DNA from: Vicinamibacteria bacterium
GTDB taxonomy: Bacteria > Acidobacteriota > Vicinamibacteria > Marinacidobacterales > Marinacidobacteraceae
Assembly (NCBI GenBank): GCA_964291235.2
Contig: OZ219816.1
Location: 1,600,001 to 1,664,000 of the forward strand
Direction of reading: 5' to 3'
DNA length: 64,000 nt
The translations under genes and the position numbers were made by a program. Under the pieces are notes generated by a model. It worked only from the letters and a program-made list of their open reading frames with translations. It did not search any database and was not told where the DNA came from. Shown here piece by piece: positions 19,178 through 25,829 of this stretch; the stretch's first letter is position 1, and every line of letters starts with the position of its first letter.

Positions 19178-21250
19178 TCAGTTCCCTTCGGCCTCCGGCA
19201 GCGCCAGCGCCACGTAGGACTCCGGCACCCGGCCCTGCTGGCCGGTCTGCACCACGATGTACTGCTTTCCCTCGTGCATGTAGGTCATCATCCCGTACAT
19301 CCCGGGCGCCGGCAGCTCCACCGAACCGACCCGTTCGCCAGTCCGCTTGTTGTGAGCATGCACCACCGGCTTGCCCCGCATGCCCTCGGTCGTCAGCAGT
19401 AGATCGCCGCTCACCATGAGGATGGAGCGGCCCTGGCCGCCGACCGTGGAGAGATCCTTCCCCTCGAGCGCGGGATGGTTCTTGATCCGGTCGTTGGGCT
19501 CGCCGACGGGAATCCACCAGAGGTGTTCGCCGGTGTTCATGTCGATTGCGGTCACCCGGCTATAGGGCGGCTTGTAGATGGGCAGCCCCTCCGGACCCGC
19601 GATCCCGATCGCCCGGTAGTTGACCCAGTCCGCGACCATCTCACCGATGGTGGTGCACTTGCCGCTCGGCGAGGTGCACTCGTGCTCCGGCCGGTCGGCG
19701 TCCACCCCTGGCTGCACGATACGTCCCGAGCAGGCCGGGCCGGAGGACTGGTAGAGGATCCCGGTCGCGGGGTCGAGCGCGGCCGGGTGGGTGATGTTGA
19801 CCGCGGAGTGGACGCCGCAGGCGATCCACCCCTTGTTCTCGTCGTATCCCTTGGGAATCGGAGGCATGTAGGGGCCGCCGACCGTGTACTGGGAGACGAT
19901 CTCGATGGCCTTTTGCCGCAGTTCCGGGGTGTAGTCGATCAGGTTGTCCTCGCTGAGGTCGAGCATCTCGACCGGTGCGGGCTTCGTCGGGACCGGCTGG
20001 GTCGGAGACAGCTTTTCGCCCGGCACGATGGACTGCGGAACCGGCTGCTCTTCAATGGGCCACACCGGCTCGCCCGTCTCCCGGTTGAATGCGAAGGTGT
20101 AACCCTGCTTGGTGGTCTGGATCGCCATCGGCACCTTCTCGCCGTTCACCTCCACATCCACCAGGATCGGGACGTTCGGGAGATCGTGGTTCCAGATCGG
20201 GTGGTGGGTGGTCTGGAAGTGCCAGACCCGCTCCCCGGTCTGCGCGTTGAGCGCGATCACACTGGTCCCGAACAGGTTGTCCCCGGGCCGGAACCCGCCG
20301 TAGAAGTCGATGGTCGGCGCGTTGGTGGGGATGTACACGATGTCCCGCTCGAGGTCGGCCGACAGCGGAGCCCACGAGGAGACGTCCCCGGTCCACTTCC
20401 AGGCGTCGTTCTCCCAGGTGCTGGCGGCGAAGTCGTCCTCCGAGCGCGGGGTGACGTTGAACTTCCACTTGAAGTCGCCGGTGCGGGCGTCGAACGCGAG
20501 GATGTCGCCGGGAACGTTCTCGATGCGGGTCTGGTGGTATCCCTGCGCGTGGGAGTTCCCCACCACGATGGTCCCGTTCACCACGATCGGGGGCGAGGAA
20601 TTCGTGATGTACCCGACGGTGGGGGCCAAACCCTCGTAGGGGTCGTAGTTGTAGCCGAAGTGGGCGAGGAGGTCCACGACGCCGGTCTTCGGGAATCCCG
20701 GGATGTCCACCGGGGCGCCGAAGCCTTCGATGTGTTCCCCGGTCTCGCCGTCGAACGCGTGCAGGAAGAACCCTGGCGAGACCACGTAAATGACGACCTT
20801 CCCGTCGATCTCGGCGTAGGCGACGCCCTTGCCGTAGCTCGAGCGCATCGACTCCTCCCAGCGCCGCGTGGTGGGTTCGGTGTAGGTCCACAGGGTCTCA
20901 CCGCTCACCGGGTCCATCGAAACCACCGCCCGCCGGTAGCCCACCACGGTGTAGAGCTTGCCGTTGATGTAGCTCGGGGTGGACTTCGAGAGAAAGCTCG
21001 GCTTCGGCCCGAAGTTGTCGCCCCGCCACATCCAGGCGACCTCCAGGTCGCTGAAATTGTCCGCGTTGATGTCGTTGAGCGGCGAGGAGCGGGTTCCCCA
21101 GGCGTCTCCACTCTGGTAACGCCATTCCCCCTCGGGCATATCGCGGTTTTGCGCCACGAGGGGCACCGCCAGCAGCAGCGCGACGGCCAGGATGCCGGCG
21201 ATCCGCGCGGGGCGTTTCCGGGGCGCGCAAACAGGGCTCAATCGGGTCAT
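19178..21250 (-). CDS. Secreted PQQ-binding beta-propeller protein, quinoprotein glucose dehydrogenase-like
   Basis: Signal peptide, Trp-docking repeats (SGETLW, TGDFKWKF, TGERVWHFQ, TGEHLW), PGDNLF, KPPYSRVTAIDMNTG, MTYMHEGKQYIVV; GGAGG upstream of ATG 21250. Confidence 0.88.
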   Translation of the reverse strand: MTRLSPVCAPRKRPARIAGILAVALLLAVPLVAQNRDMPEGEWRYQSGDAWGTRSSPLNDINADNFSDLEVAWMWRGDNFGPKPSFLSKSTPSYINGKLYTVVGYRRAVVSMDPVSGETLWTYTEPTTRRWEESMRSSYGKGVAYAEIDGKVVIYVVSPGFFLHAFDGETGEHIEGFGAPVDIPGFPKTGVVDLLAHFGYNYDPYEGLAPTVGYITNSSPPIVVNGTIVVGNSHAQGYHQTRIENVPGDILAFDARTGDFKWKFNVTPRSEDDFAASTWENDAWKWTGDVSSWAPLSADLERDIVYIPTNAPTIDFYGGFRPGDNLFGTSVIALNAQTGERVWHFQTTHHPIWNHDLPNVPILVDVEVNGEKVPMAIQTTKQGYTFAFNRETGEPVWPIEEQPVPQSIVPGEKLSPTQPVPTKPAPVEMLDLSEDNLIDYTPELRQKAIEIVSQYTVGGPYMPPIPKGYDENKGWIACGVHSAVNITHPAALDPATGILYQSSGPACSGRIVQPGVDADRPEHECTSPSGKCTTIGEMVADWVNYRAIGIAGPEGLPIYKPPYSRVTAIDMNTGEHLWWIPVGEPNDRIKNHPALEGKDLSTVGGQGRSILMVSGDLLLTTEGMRGKPVVHAHNKRTGERVGSVELPAPGMYGMMTYMHEGKQYIVVQTGQQGRVPESYVALALPEAEGN

Positions 21251-21329
21251 CTGGATCCTCCCGAGGTTGTGAGAACGGTGAATCGTAAGGCTTTCACCAA
21301 CGCGCCGAAAGTCTGGAAGTTCCCCTCGG

Positions 21330-23396
21330 CTACCGCAGGACGTCCAGCAGATTCGAATGGTCATCGGTCCAGAGGAACCGGCTGCCGGGTTCGGCAGCCT
21401 CCCCGGTCCAGGGTTCCGCCCGCCCGAGCAGACTCGGATCGGTGATGAGATCGGCGTTCAGACTCAGCACGACCCAGGTCGCGGTGTAACGGAACGCTTC
21501 CGGTTCGGGATCGCTCACGGTCAGCAGCGACAGCAGGTCCAGGCGAAGACCCTGAGCGCGGATCACCGGGGCGAGATCCACGTGACGGTTCGAAATGTGG
21601 ACCGCGATCGTGCCCCCGGGAGCCAGTCGGCTCCGGTAGAGGTCGAACGCCTCGGCGGTGAGCAGATGGACCGGGATGGCGTCCCCCGCAAAGGCGTCGA
21701 GCACGATCACGTCGAACTCCGGTTCCCCGGCCTCATCTTCCCGCGCCAGACTCAGCCGGCCGTCGCCGAGTTCCACCTCCACCTCCGCCAGCGTATCGGT
21801 GAGGAAGGTGAAGAACCCGTGCGCCGCGTCCACCACCTGCGGATCGATCTCGTAAAAGCGGAACAGATCCCCGCGCCGCCCGTGGACCGCGATGGAACCG
21901 GTCCCGAGGCCGACGACCGCCACCCGGAGCGGCCGCACCAGCCGCCGGTGCGGATGCCGGTTCAGGACCGCCTCGATGCCGGTGCCCTCGTAGTAATAGA
22001 GAGTCGGTTCGCGGCGGCGGCCGGGAGCGAACCACTGGGAACCGTGGGCGATCCCGCCGTGCCACATGTCGCGCCGCCACTCCGGGGTGCCCGGATAGGC
22101 CTCCATCACCCGAACCACGCCGAAGAAGTTCCGGGTCGCGGTCAGCGGACGCCGGTGCTCGAGCGCGCTGATCGCGATGGCGATCCCGAGCGTCGCCGCG
22201 GGAACCGCCTTCCACGCGAAAGCCCCCCGCCCCTTCACGGTGGGCCGGCCGACGACAAAGCCGACCACTACGGCGAGCACCAGCGCGAGCGGGTACTCCC
22301 AGACGTTCGGGAACAACAACGGACTGGCAACCGAGGCGAAGAGTCCGCCGAGAGCTCCCCCGGCGGTCATGGACAGATAAAAGCCGGTGAGCCGGGACGG
22401 CTCCGGCTTCCGGCGGGCGATTTCGCCGTGGATGACCCAGCAGCCGGTGAACAGGAACGCGAGCGCGGCGGCCGCGTGCGCGAGCAGGGCGCTGTCCAGG
22501 CCGTAGGTGATGTCCTGGAACCACACGTAAAAGCACGCCGCCACCGAGATGAGCAGGAGCGGCACGAGGAACCGCCGGGGATAGGGGTCTCCGCCCCGGA
22601 AGGCGAGGATGAACGTCAGCAGGTAGAGGGCGAGGGGCGCGATCCAGAGGAACGGAACCGCCGCGACGTCCCGGGTCAGATGCGTCGTAACCGCAACCAG
22701 CGCCAGGGAGCCGGCAGCCGCGAGCAGGCACGGTGAGACCTGGAAGCGCGCGGGGCCGACCCGGTCGGGCGCCGCCGCACCTTGTCCCCGCGCGGAGAGC
22801 AGGCCCGCGAGGATCGTGACGGTAGCCAGGATGAGGAACCCGCCGGACCACAACCTCGCCTGTCCGACCAGGCCCAGAAGAGGCTCGAGCAGCAGCGGAT
22901 AGAGGAGGAGACCAATGAGGGATCCGGCGTTCGAGAGCGCATAGAGCCGGTAAACATCCGGCGGCGCCTGACCGGTTGCTTCCCTACCGACCCCCCGAGC
23001 CACCCACGCGGACACCAGCGGGGTGGTCGCGGCGAGCGCGAAGAAACCCGGTCCCAGCGTCACCAGCAGAGTGAGGAGAATCCAGCCCGCGGGAGCTTCT
23101 CCACCCTCCGGAGCCCAGCCCGCCGCGGGGAGGGGCGGCAGACAGAGCAGGGCGGCGACGGCCAGCACGACGGCGTGCACCGCGGCCTGAAGCCGGGGCG
23201 TCAGTCGGGTCACCAGCAGGTGCGCATACAGGTACCCGCCCAGCAGCACCGTCTGAAAGAAGAAGAGCGCGACCGCCCACACCATCGGCGCCCCGCCGTA
23301 CCAGGGGAGGAGGCTCCGCGCCGAAAGCGGCTGGACCAGGAAGAGCAGCAGCGCGCCCAGAAAGACGGCGGCGCCGGAGAGCCAGATTCTGCCCAT
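21330..23396 (-). CDS. Fused MFS-like membrane domain / spermidine synthase-like SAM-dependent transferase
   Basis: LLFLVQPL, LPWYGG, YRLYALSNAGS, RNFFG, VVGLGTGS, YEIDP, GDGRLSL, DAFAGDAIPVHLLT, WTDDHSNL. Confidence 0.9.
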   Translation of the reverse strand: MGRIWLSGAAVFLGALLLFLVQPLSARSLLPWYGGAPMVWAVALFFFQTVLLGGYLYAHLLVTRLTPRLQAAVHAVVLAVAALLCLPPLPAAGWAPEGGEAPAGWILLTLLVTLGPGFFALAATTPLVSAWVARGVGREATGQAPPDVYRLYALSNAGSLIGLLLYPLLLEPLLGLVGQARLWSGGFLILATVTILAGLLSARGQGAAAPDRVGPARFQVSPCLLAAAGSLALVAVTTHLTRDVAAVPFLWIAPLALYLLTFILAFRGGDPYPRRFLVPLLLISVAACFYVWFQDITYGLDSALLAHAAAALAFLFTGCWVIHGEIARRKPEPSRLTGFYLSMTAGGALGGLFASVASPLLFPNVWEYPLALVLAVVVGFVVGRPTVKGRGAFAWKAVPAATLGIAIAISALEHRRPLTATRNFFGVVRVMEAYPGTPEWRRDMWHGGIAHGSQWFAPGRRREPTLYYYEGTGIEAVLNRHPHRRLVRPLRVAVVGLGTGSIAVHGRRGDLFRFYEIDPQVVDAAHGFFTFLTDTLAEVEVELGDGRLSLAREDEAGEPEFDVIVLDAFAGDAIPVHLLTAEAFDLYRSRLAPGGTIAVHISNRHVDLAPVIRAQGLRLDLLSLLTVSDPEPEAFRYTATWVVLSLNADLITDPSLLGRAEPWTGEAAEPGSRFLWTDDHSNLLDVLR

Positions 23397-23403
23397 GGGA
23401 AGG

Positions 23404-23490
23404 GTCAACAGCCTGTGGTGAAGCGCACGCGAGCACCGAGGCACCCACCGGGAGAACCAAGCCACGTGACTTTGTCCACAGGCTGCTTAA
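23404..23490 (-). repeat. MITE/REP-like element copy 1 (degenerate), terminal inverted repeats
   Basis: CAGCCTGTGG (23409-23418) and CCACAGGCTG (23476-23485) are inverted; the reverse complement aligns with the element at 24136-24207. Confidence 0.6.
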
Positions 23491-23503
23491 AATACGGGCT
23501 GTT

Positions 23504-24094
23504 ATGAAGAAGCGTCGATCGCCCCGCTCCTCCGGAGCTTCTCGTCCCGGCAACCCTCCGGCCTCCCCGCCAACCATCAAACCGGCTGTGGCGCAGAAGG
23601 GATGGGGCGCTGCCCCGATCCTCGCGATCGGCCTGCTGGTGGCCGGCGCCGCGGTGTTTTTCGTCGCCACCTTCGAGGACTCCACGGTGGAGAGCAGCCT
23701 GCAGCCGGCCTCGGACCTGTCCGCTTCCGCCTACAACCTCGGAAACCAGGCCGCGAAACCCTTTCCCTACTACGACTCGGTGGAGGAGGCGCGCCCCTTC
23801 CCGGTGACGCTCCCGCCGAACACGTACACGAACGAGACGCTGCAGACGACCTACCAGATCGCCAAGGAGATTCCCGAAGTACTGGTTCAGTTGCCGTGCC
23901 TTTGCGGGTGCCACGGCGCCTCCGAGGATCACGGGAGCCTCCTCGACTGCTACGTGGACAACCACGCGGCCACTTGAAGCACCTGTCTCCAGGAGGTCCT
24001 CCTGGCTGAGCAGATGCACGAAGACGGAGCGAGTGCCGACGAAATCCGCGAGGCGATCTACGAACACGAGTTCACGGAAATCCCGCTGAGGTAG
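23504..24094 (+). CDS. PCYCGC/CYCXC-family membrane-anchored protein, probable selenoprotein (TGA 23975-23977 read as Sec)
   Basis: TM anchor, LPCLCGC, HGSLLDCY, then HAAT-TGA-STCLQE; frame stays open with family-like sequence (LQEVLLAEQMHEDGASADEIREAI) to TAG 24092-24094; SECIS-like hairpin 11 nt after TGA. Confidence 0.85.
23989..24005 (+). promoter_or_regulatory. Putative bacterial SECIS element
   Basis: CCAGGAG-GTC-CTCCTGG perfect 7-bp stem starting 11 nt after the in-frame UGA, G at the start of the apical loop. Confidence 0.7.
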
Positions 24095-24135
24095 CGCGAA
24101 CCGCCGGGAGGCACGGCGTTTCGGCCCCGCTTTCG

Positions 24136-24207
24136 GCTAGCAGCCGGCGGACAAGGTCACGCGGCGCAGTTCTCGGTGGTCACGCCCCTTGGCCACCGGC
24201 TGCTAGC
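24136..24207 (+). repeat. MITE/REP-like element copy 2 with 21-bp terminal inverted repeats and CTAG ends
   Basis: GCTAGCAGCCGGCGGACAAGG ... CCTTGGCCACCGGCTGCTAGC (19/21 match); CTAG at 24137-24140 and 24203-24206. Confidence 0.7.
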
Positions 24208-24628
24208 GCTCCCGCCAGTAGAGCGGATTCGGCCGGTACCGGGGGTACGCCCAGGGCAGTTCGTCCATGAGATCGTCCGCGCCGGGAACGGACGCCGCGT
24301 CGCCGGCGGGCGCACCCGCCGAGTTTCCCGAAGGAGCACGCGGGCCGTGCTCTTCCTCAAGGTAGTCGAGCACCTTCTCCTGAACATCGGACTCGAGCGG
24401 CGGCATTCCCATACCGATCATCATGTCGAGAACCTCTTCCCACTGCTCGCGGTCGAGGCGTGCGGACCGGATGTAACTGTCGTCGTGACAGAAAAAACAG
24501 TTCTCTTCAACGAGTGCCCGGCCTTCGTCCTGCTGGCCGAAGGCGCGCGGAGTGCTGCGGTCGTCCGGTTCGGCGAAGGCGAGGAGCGGCAGTGCCGCGA
24601 ACACGACAGCGAGCAGCGGACGTTTCAT
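24203..24628 (-). CDS. Monoheme cytochrome c (SorB-like partner of the sulfite dehydrogenase)
   Basis: Signal peptide, CFFCH, W...LDMMIGMGM; starts 1 nt after the Mo-enzyme stop. Confidence 0.85.
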   Translation of the reverse strand: MKRPLLAVVFAALPLLAFAEPDDRSTPRAFGQQDEGRALVEENCFFCHDDSYIRSARLDREQWEEVLDMMIGMGMPPLESDVQEKVLDYLEEEHGPRAPSGNSAGAPAGDAASVPGADDLMDELPWAYPRYRPNPLYWRER

Positions 24629-24629
24629 T

Positions 24630-25829
24630 TCACGAAACCGTGACCGCAATGCGATGCATCGCGTTGTTCAGGTAACCGCGCGGGTTCCAGCCCGGCACGA
24701 CCATCGGTTGCTGGCGTCCCCGGTGGTCCGTCGCTCGCGCCCAGACCTCGTAGTGTCCTGGAATGTCAAACGCTACGGAACCCTCAAAACGCTGCCAGGC
24801 GAACGGGTTCTCGGGTTCCTCCAGCCGGCATTCGAGCCACGTCGCCCCGAAATCGACGCTCAGGTGCATCGCGTTCACCGGGCCGTCGCCGGCCCAGGCC
24901 CAGCCGCGCAGAGCGAGCGAACTCGCGACCGCGTGGCGGACGCCGGTCTGGGGCCGGGTGATGATGGATTTCACCGGCATGGGGCCGATGATTTCCATGT
25001 CCTCCTCCGGCACGTCGGTCCCGGGGGCCACCGGATACCGGGGTACGCGGTAGGAAAAGCCCGTCATTTTCGGACCATCGTGCACTTGATCGCGAACCCA
25101 GAGCCGCCGTAGCCACTTGCCGCTCGCTGACGCGGGGTAGCCCGGCGCCACGACTCGCAGCGGGAAGCCGTGGTGGGGCGGCAACGGTTCGCCGTTCATT
25201 TCCCACGCGAGCAGGGTGGAGTCGTCCATTGCCTTGGACAGCGGAACCCCTCGGGAGATCGGAACGTCTTCGGGATTTCCGCTCAGATGCGGATCCTCGC
25301 CGTAGTACGCGACAAAGACAGCGGTGTCGAGCACTCCGGCGGCAGCAAGCACGTCCCGGAGACGAACCCCGGTGTAGCGCGCACAGCCCACGGCGCCGAG
25401 CCACCACTGATTGCCCGCCGCTCCCGGCTCGAAGGCCGCCCGCCCGTTTCCCGCGCATTCGAGGACGAGGGACCGGGTCACGTTCTCGAAGCGCGACTTG
25501 AGATCGTCGAGCGACAGGTCCAGCACTTTTCCGACCTCGCCGTCGATCGTGAGCGACCAGCCTTCGAGATTGCCGGACCGCGCCCGCTCCGGCAGCGCGC
25601 CGTTGTTGCGGACGAAGTGCTTGTCGTTGGGCGTGTTGCGCGGGTCGAGATCGGCCACCAGGGTCTCGGCATTGACCGGACGCTCGCTCAGAATGCGGAG
25701 GCCACTCTTCCCGAAGACCGTGCCGCCACCCTGGGCGGCCGCCCGCTCGAGGGCGAGGGCGCTCGCGCCGGCGGCTCCCGGAACCGACCCGAGGAACCGC
25801 CGTCTCGACAGGAGATGGAGAGGTTTCAT
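24630..25829 (-). CDS. Tat-exported sulfite oxidase-family molybdoenzyme (SorA/SorT-like sulfite dehydrogenase)
   Basis: SRRRFL Tat motif, FVRNNG, LECAGNGR (Mo-ligand Cys), MNGEPLPPHHGFPLR, SGKWL, C-terminal dimerisation domain WNPRGYLNN. Confidence 0.92.
   Translation of the reverse strand: MKPLHLLSRRRFLGSVPGAAGASALALERAAAQGGGTVFGKSGLRILSERPVNAETLVADLDPRNTPNDKHFVRNNGALPERARSGNLEGWSLTIDGEVGKVLDLSLDDLKSRFENVTRSLVLECAGNGRAAFEPGAAGNQWWLGAVGCARYTGVRLRDVLAAAGVLDTAVFVAYYGEDPHLSGNPEDVPISRGVPLSKAMDDSTLLAWEMNGEPLPPHHGFPLRVVAPGYPASASGKWLRRLWVRDQVHDGPKMTGFSYRVPRYPVAPGTDVPEEDMEIIGPMPVKSIITRPQTGVRHAVASSLALRGWAWAGDGPVNAMHLSVDFGATWLECRLEEPENPFAWQRFEGSVAFDIPGHYEVWARATDHRGRQQPMVVPGWNPRGYLNNAMHRIAVTVS

Follow-up and report, generated by a model that had tools for sequence, protein, structure and literature searches.

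A gene of the catalogued CYCXC selenoprotein family, called short in databases, in a Vicinamibacteria bacterium

The window analyzed here is a stretch of 64,000 nucleotides (nt) from a Vicinamibacteria bacterium of the family Marinacidobacteraceae, phylum Acidobacteriota (NCBI GenBank assembly GCA_964291235.2, contig OZ219816.1, positions 1,600,001 to 1,664,000 of the forward strand). Positions 23504-24094 of its plus strand hold a reading frame that is interrupted by a single TGA codon. In our opinion, this region is very probably one gene, which encodes a 196-residue selenoprotein of the CYCXC family (OS_HP4) that is predicted to be membrane-anchored. With still greater confidence we conclude that the UGA at 23975-23977 is decoded as selenocysteine (Sec) by the genome's own system, via a selenocysteine insertion sequence (SECIS) within the coding region. 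It is a genuine Sec gene, called short in databases, of an already catalogued selenoprotein family, and its conserved divergent neighbor, a gene for a membrane protein of 711 amino acids (aa), is the only new lead. The coordinates of all features are given in Table 1.

Table 1. Features of the CYCXC locus and further genes of the same genome. Positions are those of the window, or those of contigs C1 and C2 of the genome (G000) where so marked.
Feature	Position	Strand	Evidence or remark
CYCXC-family selenoprotein coding sequence	23504..24094	+	196 residues plus TAG stop; Sec is residue 158
UGA read as Sec158, opening U-S-T-C (UxxC, 23975-23986)	23975..23977	+	Cys in homologs; TGA column in 29 loci; run contigs
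True stop TAG	24092..24094	+	Sec-form orthologs examined end 38-41 codons past the TGA
Bacterial SECIS hairpin, 7 Watson-Crick base pairs, loop GUC at 23996-23998	23989..24005	+	Fold, covariation, bSECIS rules
P-C-L-C-G-C motif, residues 131-136 (family C-x-C-x-C signature)	23894..23911	+	All six residues invariant, 22 of 22 aligned
Predicted single transmembrane helix, residues 37-57	23612..23674	+	Structure model; follows a Lys/Arg-rich N-terminus
Promoter-like site GTGACT / 16-nt spacer / TAAAAT	23466..23493	+	Consensus match alone; ends 10 nt before the ATG
711-aa multi-pass membrane protein, divergent, with spermidine-synthase-like C-terminal part	21330..23465	-	NF037959, 66.9 bits (cut-off 40)
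PQQ-dependent dehydrogenase, other side of the locus	19178-21364	-	PF01011, 510 bits
Small c-type cytochrome, convergent, downstream	24203-24649	-	
SorA-like molybdopterin oxidoreductase, convergent, downstream	24630-25829	-	Below equivalog cut-offs
Rdx/SelW-like domain match with one in-frame TGA, CxxU	G000:C2:1709025-1709231	-	
AhpC-TSA domain match with one in-frame TGA, UxxC	G000:C2:1341210-1341599	-	
AhpC-TSA domain match with one in-frame TGA, TxxU	G000:C2:1804116-1804565	+	
CMD/AhpD-like domain match with one in-frame TGA, CxxU	G000:C1:714906-715127	-	

Reading frame and family assignment

From the ATG at 23504 the frame runs into the TGA at 23975-23977 (open reading frame 23504-23977) and then continues for 38 sense codons up to the TAG at 24092-24094. 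An earlier interpretation of the bare letters, hereafter called the sequence-only reading, had proposed precisely this extension, and our translation was identical to the one given there. The choice of this ATG as start codon is supported by the alignment of CYCXC homologs, where M1 never varies and K3 hardly does.

The read-through product belongs to the NCBIfam equivalog NF041379, 'CYCXC family (seleno)protein' (OS_HP4), scoring 102.1 bits where the cut-off is 90. Residues 100-188 are matched to model positions 2-88 of 90, so the TGA lies inside the matched part. When the same model was applied to the six-frame translation of the own genome, it delivered 99.2 bits with one TGA. Membership in the Pfam family PF13798 (PCYCGC), to which the product had been assigned before, was borne out as well: residues 109-188 scored 43.6 bits, above the gathering threshold of 25. 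Among the residues found to be invariant are P131-C-L-C-G-C136, D142, H143, C149, and H154. Including the Sec residue and the Cys of the U-S-T-C stretch (residues 158-161), the domain comprises eight invariant Cys/His/Sec ligands, namely C132, C134, C136, H143, C149, H154, U158, and C161.

Conservation at and beyond the UGA codon

A protein search found 154 relatives, 120 of which were listed. From these, 18 full-length proteins were chosen for high query coverage and aligned together with the product and three truncated hits (n = 22). All 18 full-length homologs carry Cys in the TGA column, within the motif H-A-[A/S]-T-[U/C]-x-x-C, and thus C-x-x-C at the place of U-S-T-C, and their C-terminal helices remain alignable over the whole read-through tail. 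Consequently, the expectation of the sequence-only reading that PF13798 homologs should show Cys or UGA in this column and likeness past it agrees with the alignment. Hits of at least 55% identity never covered more than 80% of the query, so we regard the close relatives in the database as proteins that were ended at the TGA. A query coverage of 85-99% was reached by more distant hits, which have 181-204 residues. Three Cys-form hits from the same class (P0081, P0089, and P0116) already carry the NCBI name 'CYCXC family (seleno)protein'. The database entries of this copy and of its close relatives comprise 129-189 residues, about 157 for most of them, and the single source-named entry among these shortened proteins is called 'hypothetical protein'. 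Thus, the stored products of close relatives miss two conserved Cys/Sec ligands; the correct product has 196 residues and Sec at position 158.

To this protein comparison we added a six-frame search with NF041379 in 61 genomes, the own genome and 60 relatives. Matches were obtained in 45 of them (own genome included), 44 above the cut-off, and the rows above the cut-off divide into 30 with one TGA and 17 without. Within the own family 26 of the 27 other genomes match, with one TGA in every matching row. Of the 19 genomes in the sister family 17 match, in most cases with no stop, and one genus possesses both a Cys copy and a TGA copy. None of the eight genomes of a third family gave an NF041379 match. 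With an own family that is all-Sec, a sister family that is mostly Cys and one genus that has both, the group offers a clean natural comparison of Sec and Cys forms.

Forty loci were fetched for closer comparison: 29 of the 30 TGA rows above the cut-off (all but that of genome G002), together with 11 of the 17 Cys rows. In each of the 29 TGA loci, 28 of which are from other genomes, the TGA occupies the same column and is followed by a conserved open tail of 38-41 codons. Among these Sec-form loci, the ratio of nonsynonymous to synonymous polymorphism (pN/pS) amounts to 0.45 downstream of the TGA, compared with 0.29 upstream, and in the tail third codon positions are about twice as variable as first and second positions. 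The conserved open frame, the pN/pS value, and the third-position excess demonstrate that the tail is under protein-coding selection.

These data bear directly on the possibility that the TGA is a real stop, that a protein of 157 residues alone is made and that the tail, though conserved, is just a relic or else a separate feature. Gene callers do end the proteins of the relatives at 157 residues, and the read-through is known here from sequence alone. However, a relic would not stay open over 38-41 codons in 29 of 29 loci from several genera, nor would it hold a pN/pS of 0.45 with an excess at third positions. It would retain neither the second Cys of the UxxC motif nor a hairpin that is found in TGA forms only (see below), and the shortened product would be without two of the six conserved Cys of the family. 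We therefore consider a real stop very improbable.

Two irregular cases were encountered among the relatives. In genome G053 (C30:15318-15570, plus strand) the CYCXC match falls into two neighboring pieces that lie in different frames, one of which contains a TGA; either a frameshifted copy or a fault of the assembly could account for this. Genome G057, which belongs to another family of the same class, contains two weak matches of 65 and 55 bits, below the cut-off (C127:815-1084, minus strand, and C140:4328-4591, plus strand), one of which carries a TGA.

Sequencing support for the codon

Further support for the codon was drawn from Logan contigs of four sequencing runs, of which X1 and X3 stem from one study, X5 from a second and X22, an RNA library, from a third. 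The contigs of X1, X3, and X5 are identical to the window across the TGA. The X22 contig has a length of 289 nt, covers 23888-24110 and differs at 16 positions, none of them listed at the TGA or in the hairpin. A TGC or TGT at 23977, which the sequence-only reading had named as a result that would speak against it, appeared in none of the four runs. Since the run contigs agree, the diverged X22 contig included, and since the same TGA column is found at 28 fetched loci of other genomes, the explanation that a TGC or TGT was misread in sequencing or assembly can be excluded with a probability bordering on certainty.

SECIS hairpin

The 5' arm of the hairpin begins 11 nt past the A of the TGA. 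Its position at 23989-24005, its 7 base pairs (bp), its loop starting with GU and its distance of 11 nt from the UGA had all been read correctly to the base from the letters alone. The minimal element of Escherichia coli fdhF is a 17-nt upper stem-loop, situated 11 nt after the UGA, and the present hairpin has this geometry. With such fdhF-type elements and with the bacterial SECIS (bSECIS) consensus the hairpin shares its location in the coding region just past the UGA and a 3-nt loop of G followed by U. In contrast to the fdhF type, the 7-bp stem shows no evident bulged U. The bSECIS model, as given in the legend to Fig. 2 of PMC13188914, allows for a loop of 3-9 nt, a stem of 4-16 bp, a G in the first two loop positions, 16-37 nt from the UGA to the loop, and a minimum free energy of -7.5 kcal/mol or lower. 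The present hairpin obeys all four published rules, with its GUC loop, 7 bp, 18 nt from UGA to loop, and -9.9 kcal/mol for the 17-nt hairpin alone. An Rfam search of 23400-24300 with E values up to 10 returned chance-level matches alone and no SECIS model.

Taken from this one sequence, the hairpin is weak evidence for a SECIS. Its fold z score against dinucleotide shuffles is only -0.65 for 71 nt and -1.2 to -1.85 for 17-41 nt. Furthermore, the window contains 1165 TGA triplets, counting both strands, and a hairpin with bSECIS-like geometry and a stem of 7 bp or more follows 101 of them (8.7%); in 23 of the 1165 (2.0%) a comparable arm starts 9-13 nt downstream. In a single sequence the hairpin is thus not above chance, but the comparative data raise it above chance. 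All 29 Sec-form loci, but none of the 11 Cys-form loci, have at +11/12 a hairpin with a stem of 6 bp or more and a G-first loop. In the alignment of 24 distinct sequences the seven pairs are formed in 98.8% of their cells, compared with 28.6-58.9% if the partner columns are slid. Two pairs have changed on both sides, from C-G to A-U in three sequences and from G-C to A-U in four. However, these compensatory changes come from few lineages and therefore amount to few independent events, which limits their weight. Some of these substitutions exchange the encoded amino acid where they fall on one arm but are synonymous where they fall on the other. The hairpin codons have a synonymous diversity of 0.18, which compares with 0.46 for the 20 codons before the TGA and 0.51 for the part of the tail that follows the hairpin.

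Selenocysteine machinery of the genome

The genome comprises 3.45 Mb in 2 contigs and is 90% complete. It contains a tRNA-Sec with the anticodon UCA (69.7 bits), SelA (406.8 bits), SelB (285.7 bits, or 311 if a C-terminal piece is included), and SelD (249.5 bits). Thus selA, selB, selC, and selD, for which the sequence-only reading had suggested to look, are all present. Together, tRNA-Sec, SelA, SelB, and the SelD fusion protein described below very probably decode the UGA at 23975-23977 as selenocysteine. The signal is the hairpin at 23989-24005, whose G-U loop SelB would meet at a distance of 18 nt from the UGA.

In the SelD fusion, a pyridine-nucleotide-disulphide oxidoreductase domain is joined to the N-terminal side of SelD (G000:C1:1306478-1308814, L019:220-2556, plus strand). 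The reading frame of this fusion encodes 778 residues, with Pyr_redox_2 at 32-339 and AIRS/AIRS_C at 473-770.

Four further domain matches of the genome, one to Rdx, two to AhpC-TSA, and one to CMD, carry a single in-frame TGA (Table 1) and, judged by their sequences, are probably further selenoprotein genes. No match to the alpha subunit of formate dehydrogenase (Fdh-alpha, TIGR01591) was found in the genome (90% complete), and it may therefore be small proteins of the thiol type, CYCXC among them, that keep the Sec machinery in use.

Given this machinery, one might still ask if the TGA is read as Cys or Trp without any selenium, be it through near-cognate decoding, a tRNA-Sec charged with Cys or some other suppressor. 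Cys is evidently tolerated at this position, as it is found there in 18 of 18 homologs, and SelB-dependent insertion of Cys under selenium limitation has been described. However, the Sec pathway is complete and intact, including SelD and SelA, a rule-conforming SECIS is located at the right distance, and the genome has four other matches with a TGA in the active site. Nor is there any sign of a genome-wide reassignment of UGA, as ordinary reading frames of the window end in TGA (translation table 11). A reading as Cys or Trp is consequently no more credible than a real stop, and we favor decoding as selenocysteine.

A de novo scan of the whole genome for Sec genes was tried and abandoned in favor of searches with four families (Fdh-alpha, Rdx, AhpC-TSA, and CMD, see above). 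It required a TGA, an open frame on both sides, a GC content at third codon positions of at least 0.8, and a hairpin, and yielded 283 candidates, 145 of them in redox-like context, but was dominated by noise in this GC-rich genome. The CYCXC gene is not among the 80 candidates listed of these 283.

Comparison with known families

CYCXC (OS_HP4) is listed as a selenoprotein family with a UxxC motif in two selenoproteome reviews, PMC13188914 and another. These confirm the statement in the sequence-only reading that Sec-containing PCYCGC members had been reported; at the same time, the novelty implied there by the word 'hidden' does not hold, because the family is already catalogued. For OS_HP4 the reviews cite a study of Olavius symbionts (PMC1976440). 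In the main text of that study OS_HP4 is absent, and its Table 2 has OS_HP1-3 only. The copy described here resembles the CYCXC family (NF041379) in its equivalog score, in the C-x-C-x-C signature, and in the UxxC motif with Sec. Nothing essential differs, except that this copy and those of close relatives are stored shortened. General knowledge of selenoproteins is unchanged by this find, and its biological value is modest.

The PF13798 'PCYCGC' lipoproteins of Firmicutes, for example of Parageobacillus thermoglucosidasius, have three further conserved Cys beyond the motif and the lipobox Cys, according to PMC13068155. They belong to the same Pfam family and are extracytoplasmic, and their three extra Cys fit C149, U158, and C161 of our product. 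In contrast, they are lipid-anchored Cys forms, whereas the product described here uses Sec and is anchored by a predicted N-terminal transmembrane (TM) helix. Since the Firmicute members are lipoproteins, the family is placed outside the cell. No function test for PCYCGC/CYCXC proteins is reported in the accessible parts of PMC13188914 and PMC13068155.

Predicted structure and proposed mechanism

The N-terminus contains eight Lys/Arg within 35 residues, and by the positive-inside rule the TM helix predicted at residues 37-57 is probably a signal anchor with the N-terminus inside. In the structure model, a disordered linker follows this helix and leads to a helical domain of about residues 100-196 without strands (predicted local distance difference test, pLDDT, of 76-96 by block). 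According to the model this domain would be situated outside the cytoplasmic membrane, which fits to the description 'membrane-anchored, probably extracytoplasmic' in the sequence-only reading. Sec158 directly precedes the helix 159-173. The reactive residue of CxxC redox motifs usually sits at that place, just before a helix.

The protein is thus predicted to be signal-anchored, with a cytoplasmic N-terminus, the TM helix, a linker, and the helical domain outside. Its UxxC pair would cycle between the selenol/thiol and the selenenylsulfide state, and the domain would act as an extracytoplasmic thiol/selenol oxidoreductase. The CxCxC/His/Cys cluster would either hold a structural or substrate metal or provide further redox centers. 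The position of Sec158 immediately before helix 159-173 of the model is the reason why we favor a selenol/thiol-selenenylsulfide redox couple for the UxxC pair, and we put the chances of this assignment at about even.

Several observations must be held against this picture. The family is a computational prediction, and the accessible parts of the reviews and of PMC1976440 cite no selenium incorporation for any of its members. The X22 contig comes from a relative and possibly represents DNA carried over, and is therefore at most a hint of transcription. With regard to function, Foldseek gave no hit against the PDB at an E value of 0.001 or lower, and the best result of a wide VIA-align search, a designed zinc-induced dimer with Z 5.1, lies within the noise for helical models. 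The predicted domain is all helix, unlike the thioredoxin fold with its mixed beta-sheet, with which it would share only a CxxC at the start of a helix. Moreover, eight Cys/His/Sec ligands would suit either a metal site or a redox site equally well.

The last point leads to the most serious alternative, in which the selenoprotein is the same but its Sec/Cys/His cluster is a metal-handling site, for example for binding or chaperoning Cu(I), Zn, or Hg, with UxxC as a ligand pair. Eight invariant soft ligands within about 30 residues would fill two tetrahedral sites. Among the UxxC/UxxU selenoproteins tabulated in PMC13188914 and the second review are a cation-transporting ATPase, a MerT-like protein, a putative mercuric reductase and a CopZ-like protein, and the gene of a Firmicute PF13798 lipoprotein adjoins one for an Fe3+ solute-binding protein (PMC13068155). 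The top VIA row is the designed zinc dimer just mentioned, and the metal sensors MerR, CueR, and PbrR follow at Z 3.1-3.5. However, none of these structural matches rises above noise, and the conserved neighbors include no gene for metal resistance or metal transport. The abstracts of the reviews place Sec in active sites and hold most families to be redox-acting. A metal-handling site hence is a tentative alternative, to which we give clearly less than even chances, and the redox couple is retained here as working model.

Other comparisons of the fold were of limited yield. A PDB sequence search with the family profile gave no hit at an E value of 1 or lower, and no thioredoxin-fold chain is among the Foldseek and VIA rows. 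Assigning a fold from the VIA matches was tried and dropped, as all Z values were within the stated noise for helical models. In the ESM Atlas, the Cys-form homolog P0072 scored best against unnamed clusters (0.77 and 0.76) if PF13798 clusters were excluded. As an analogy in the way of working, the periplasmic domain of CcmH may be named, a small helical membrane-anchored domain with a CxxC-type motif. We claim no membership: CcmH ranks 15th in VIA with Z 3.2, which is noise level (65 residues aligned, root-mean-square deviation 3.5), and shows no sequence similarity. Unlike CcmH, the CYCXC protein has the extra CxCxC/His ligands.

Genomic neighborhood

Upstream, the CYCXC gene is flanked by the divergent 711-aa gene. 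Its product matched no Pfam family, and the NCBIfam model that it does match, NF037959, is named 'fused MFS/spermidine synthase'. The SorA-like gene and the cytochrome gene on one side, and the dehydrogenase gene dependent on pyrroloquinoline quinone (PQQ) on the other, are predicted to encode periplasmic redox enzymes. Since the scores for SorA, SorB, and SorT are far below the equivalog cut-offs, 'sulfite dehydrogenase' is a likeness only.

Neighbors were counted at 38 loci from named public records, which overlap the 61 searched genomes and are thus not independent of them. All 38 are from Acidobacteriota and carry the names Vicinamibacteria, Candidatus Marinacidobacterium, or Marinacidobacterales. 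The codon in question is TGA in 22 loci and a Cys codon (TGC or TGT) in 15, while the pattern gave no reading for one locus. The 711-aa gene adjoins the CYCXC gene in 31 of the 38 loci, made up of 21 of the 22 with Sec, 9 of the 15 with Cys, and the one without a reading, and is kept down to about 40% identity. Downstream, the SorA-like molybdoenzyme is present in 24 of the 38 loci and the c-type cytochrome in 21. This synteny may be gene order inherited within one bacterial order, and it is a lead rather than evidence that the genes act together. One might speculate that the CYCXC selenoprotein is an extracytoplasmic redox or chalcogen/metal-handling partner of the 711-aa protein, in an undescribed envelope module that often stands beside the SorA-like enzyme and the cytochrome. 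We consider this unlikely at present; if true, the Sec form would have become fixed in this module throughout an entire family of marine Acidobacteriota.

The promoter-like site in front of the CYCXC gene occurs once in the real sequence, compared with a mean of 0.1 in shuffles. It is overlapped by a short dispersed repeat at 23400-23495, in the intergenic region between the 711-aa gene and the CYCXC gene. This stretch of 96 nt has 47 matches in the own genome including itself, mostly of 25-80 nt and with 76-96% identity. Many other contigs stack on 23405-23487 at far higher depth, and their ends are loose on either side. The dispersed repeat is bordered by an inverted repeat of 10 nt (23411-23420 and 23477-23486) and looks like a repetitive extragenic palindromic (REP) or miniature inverted-repeat transposable element (MITE)-like element.

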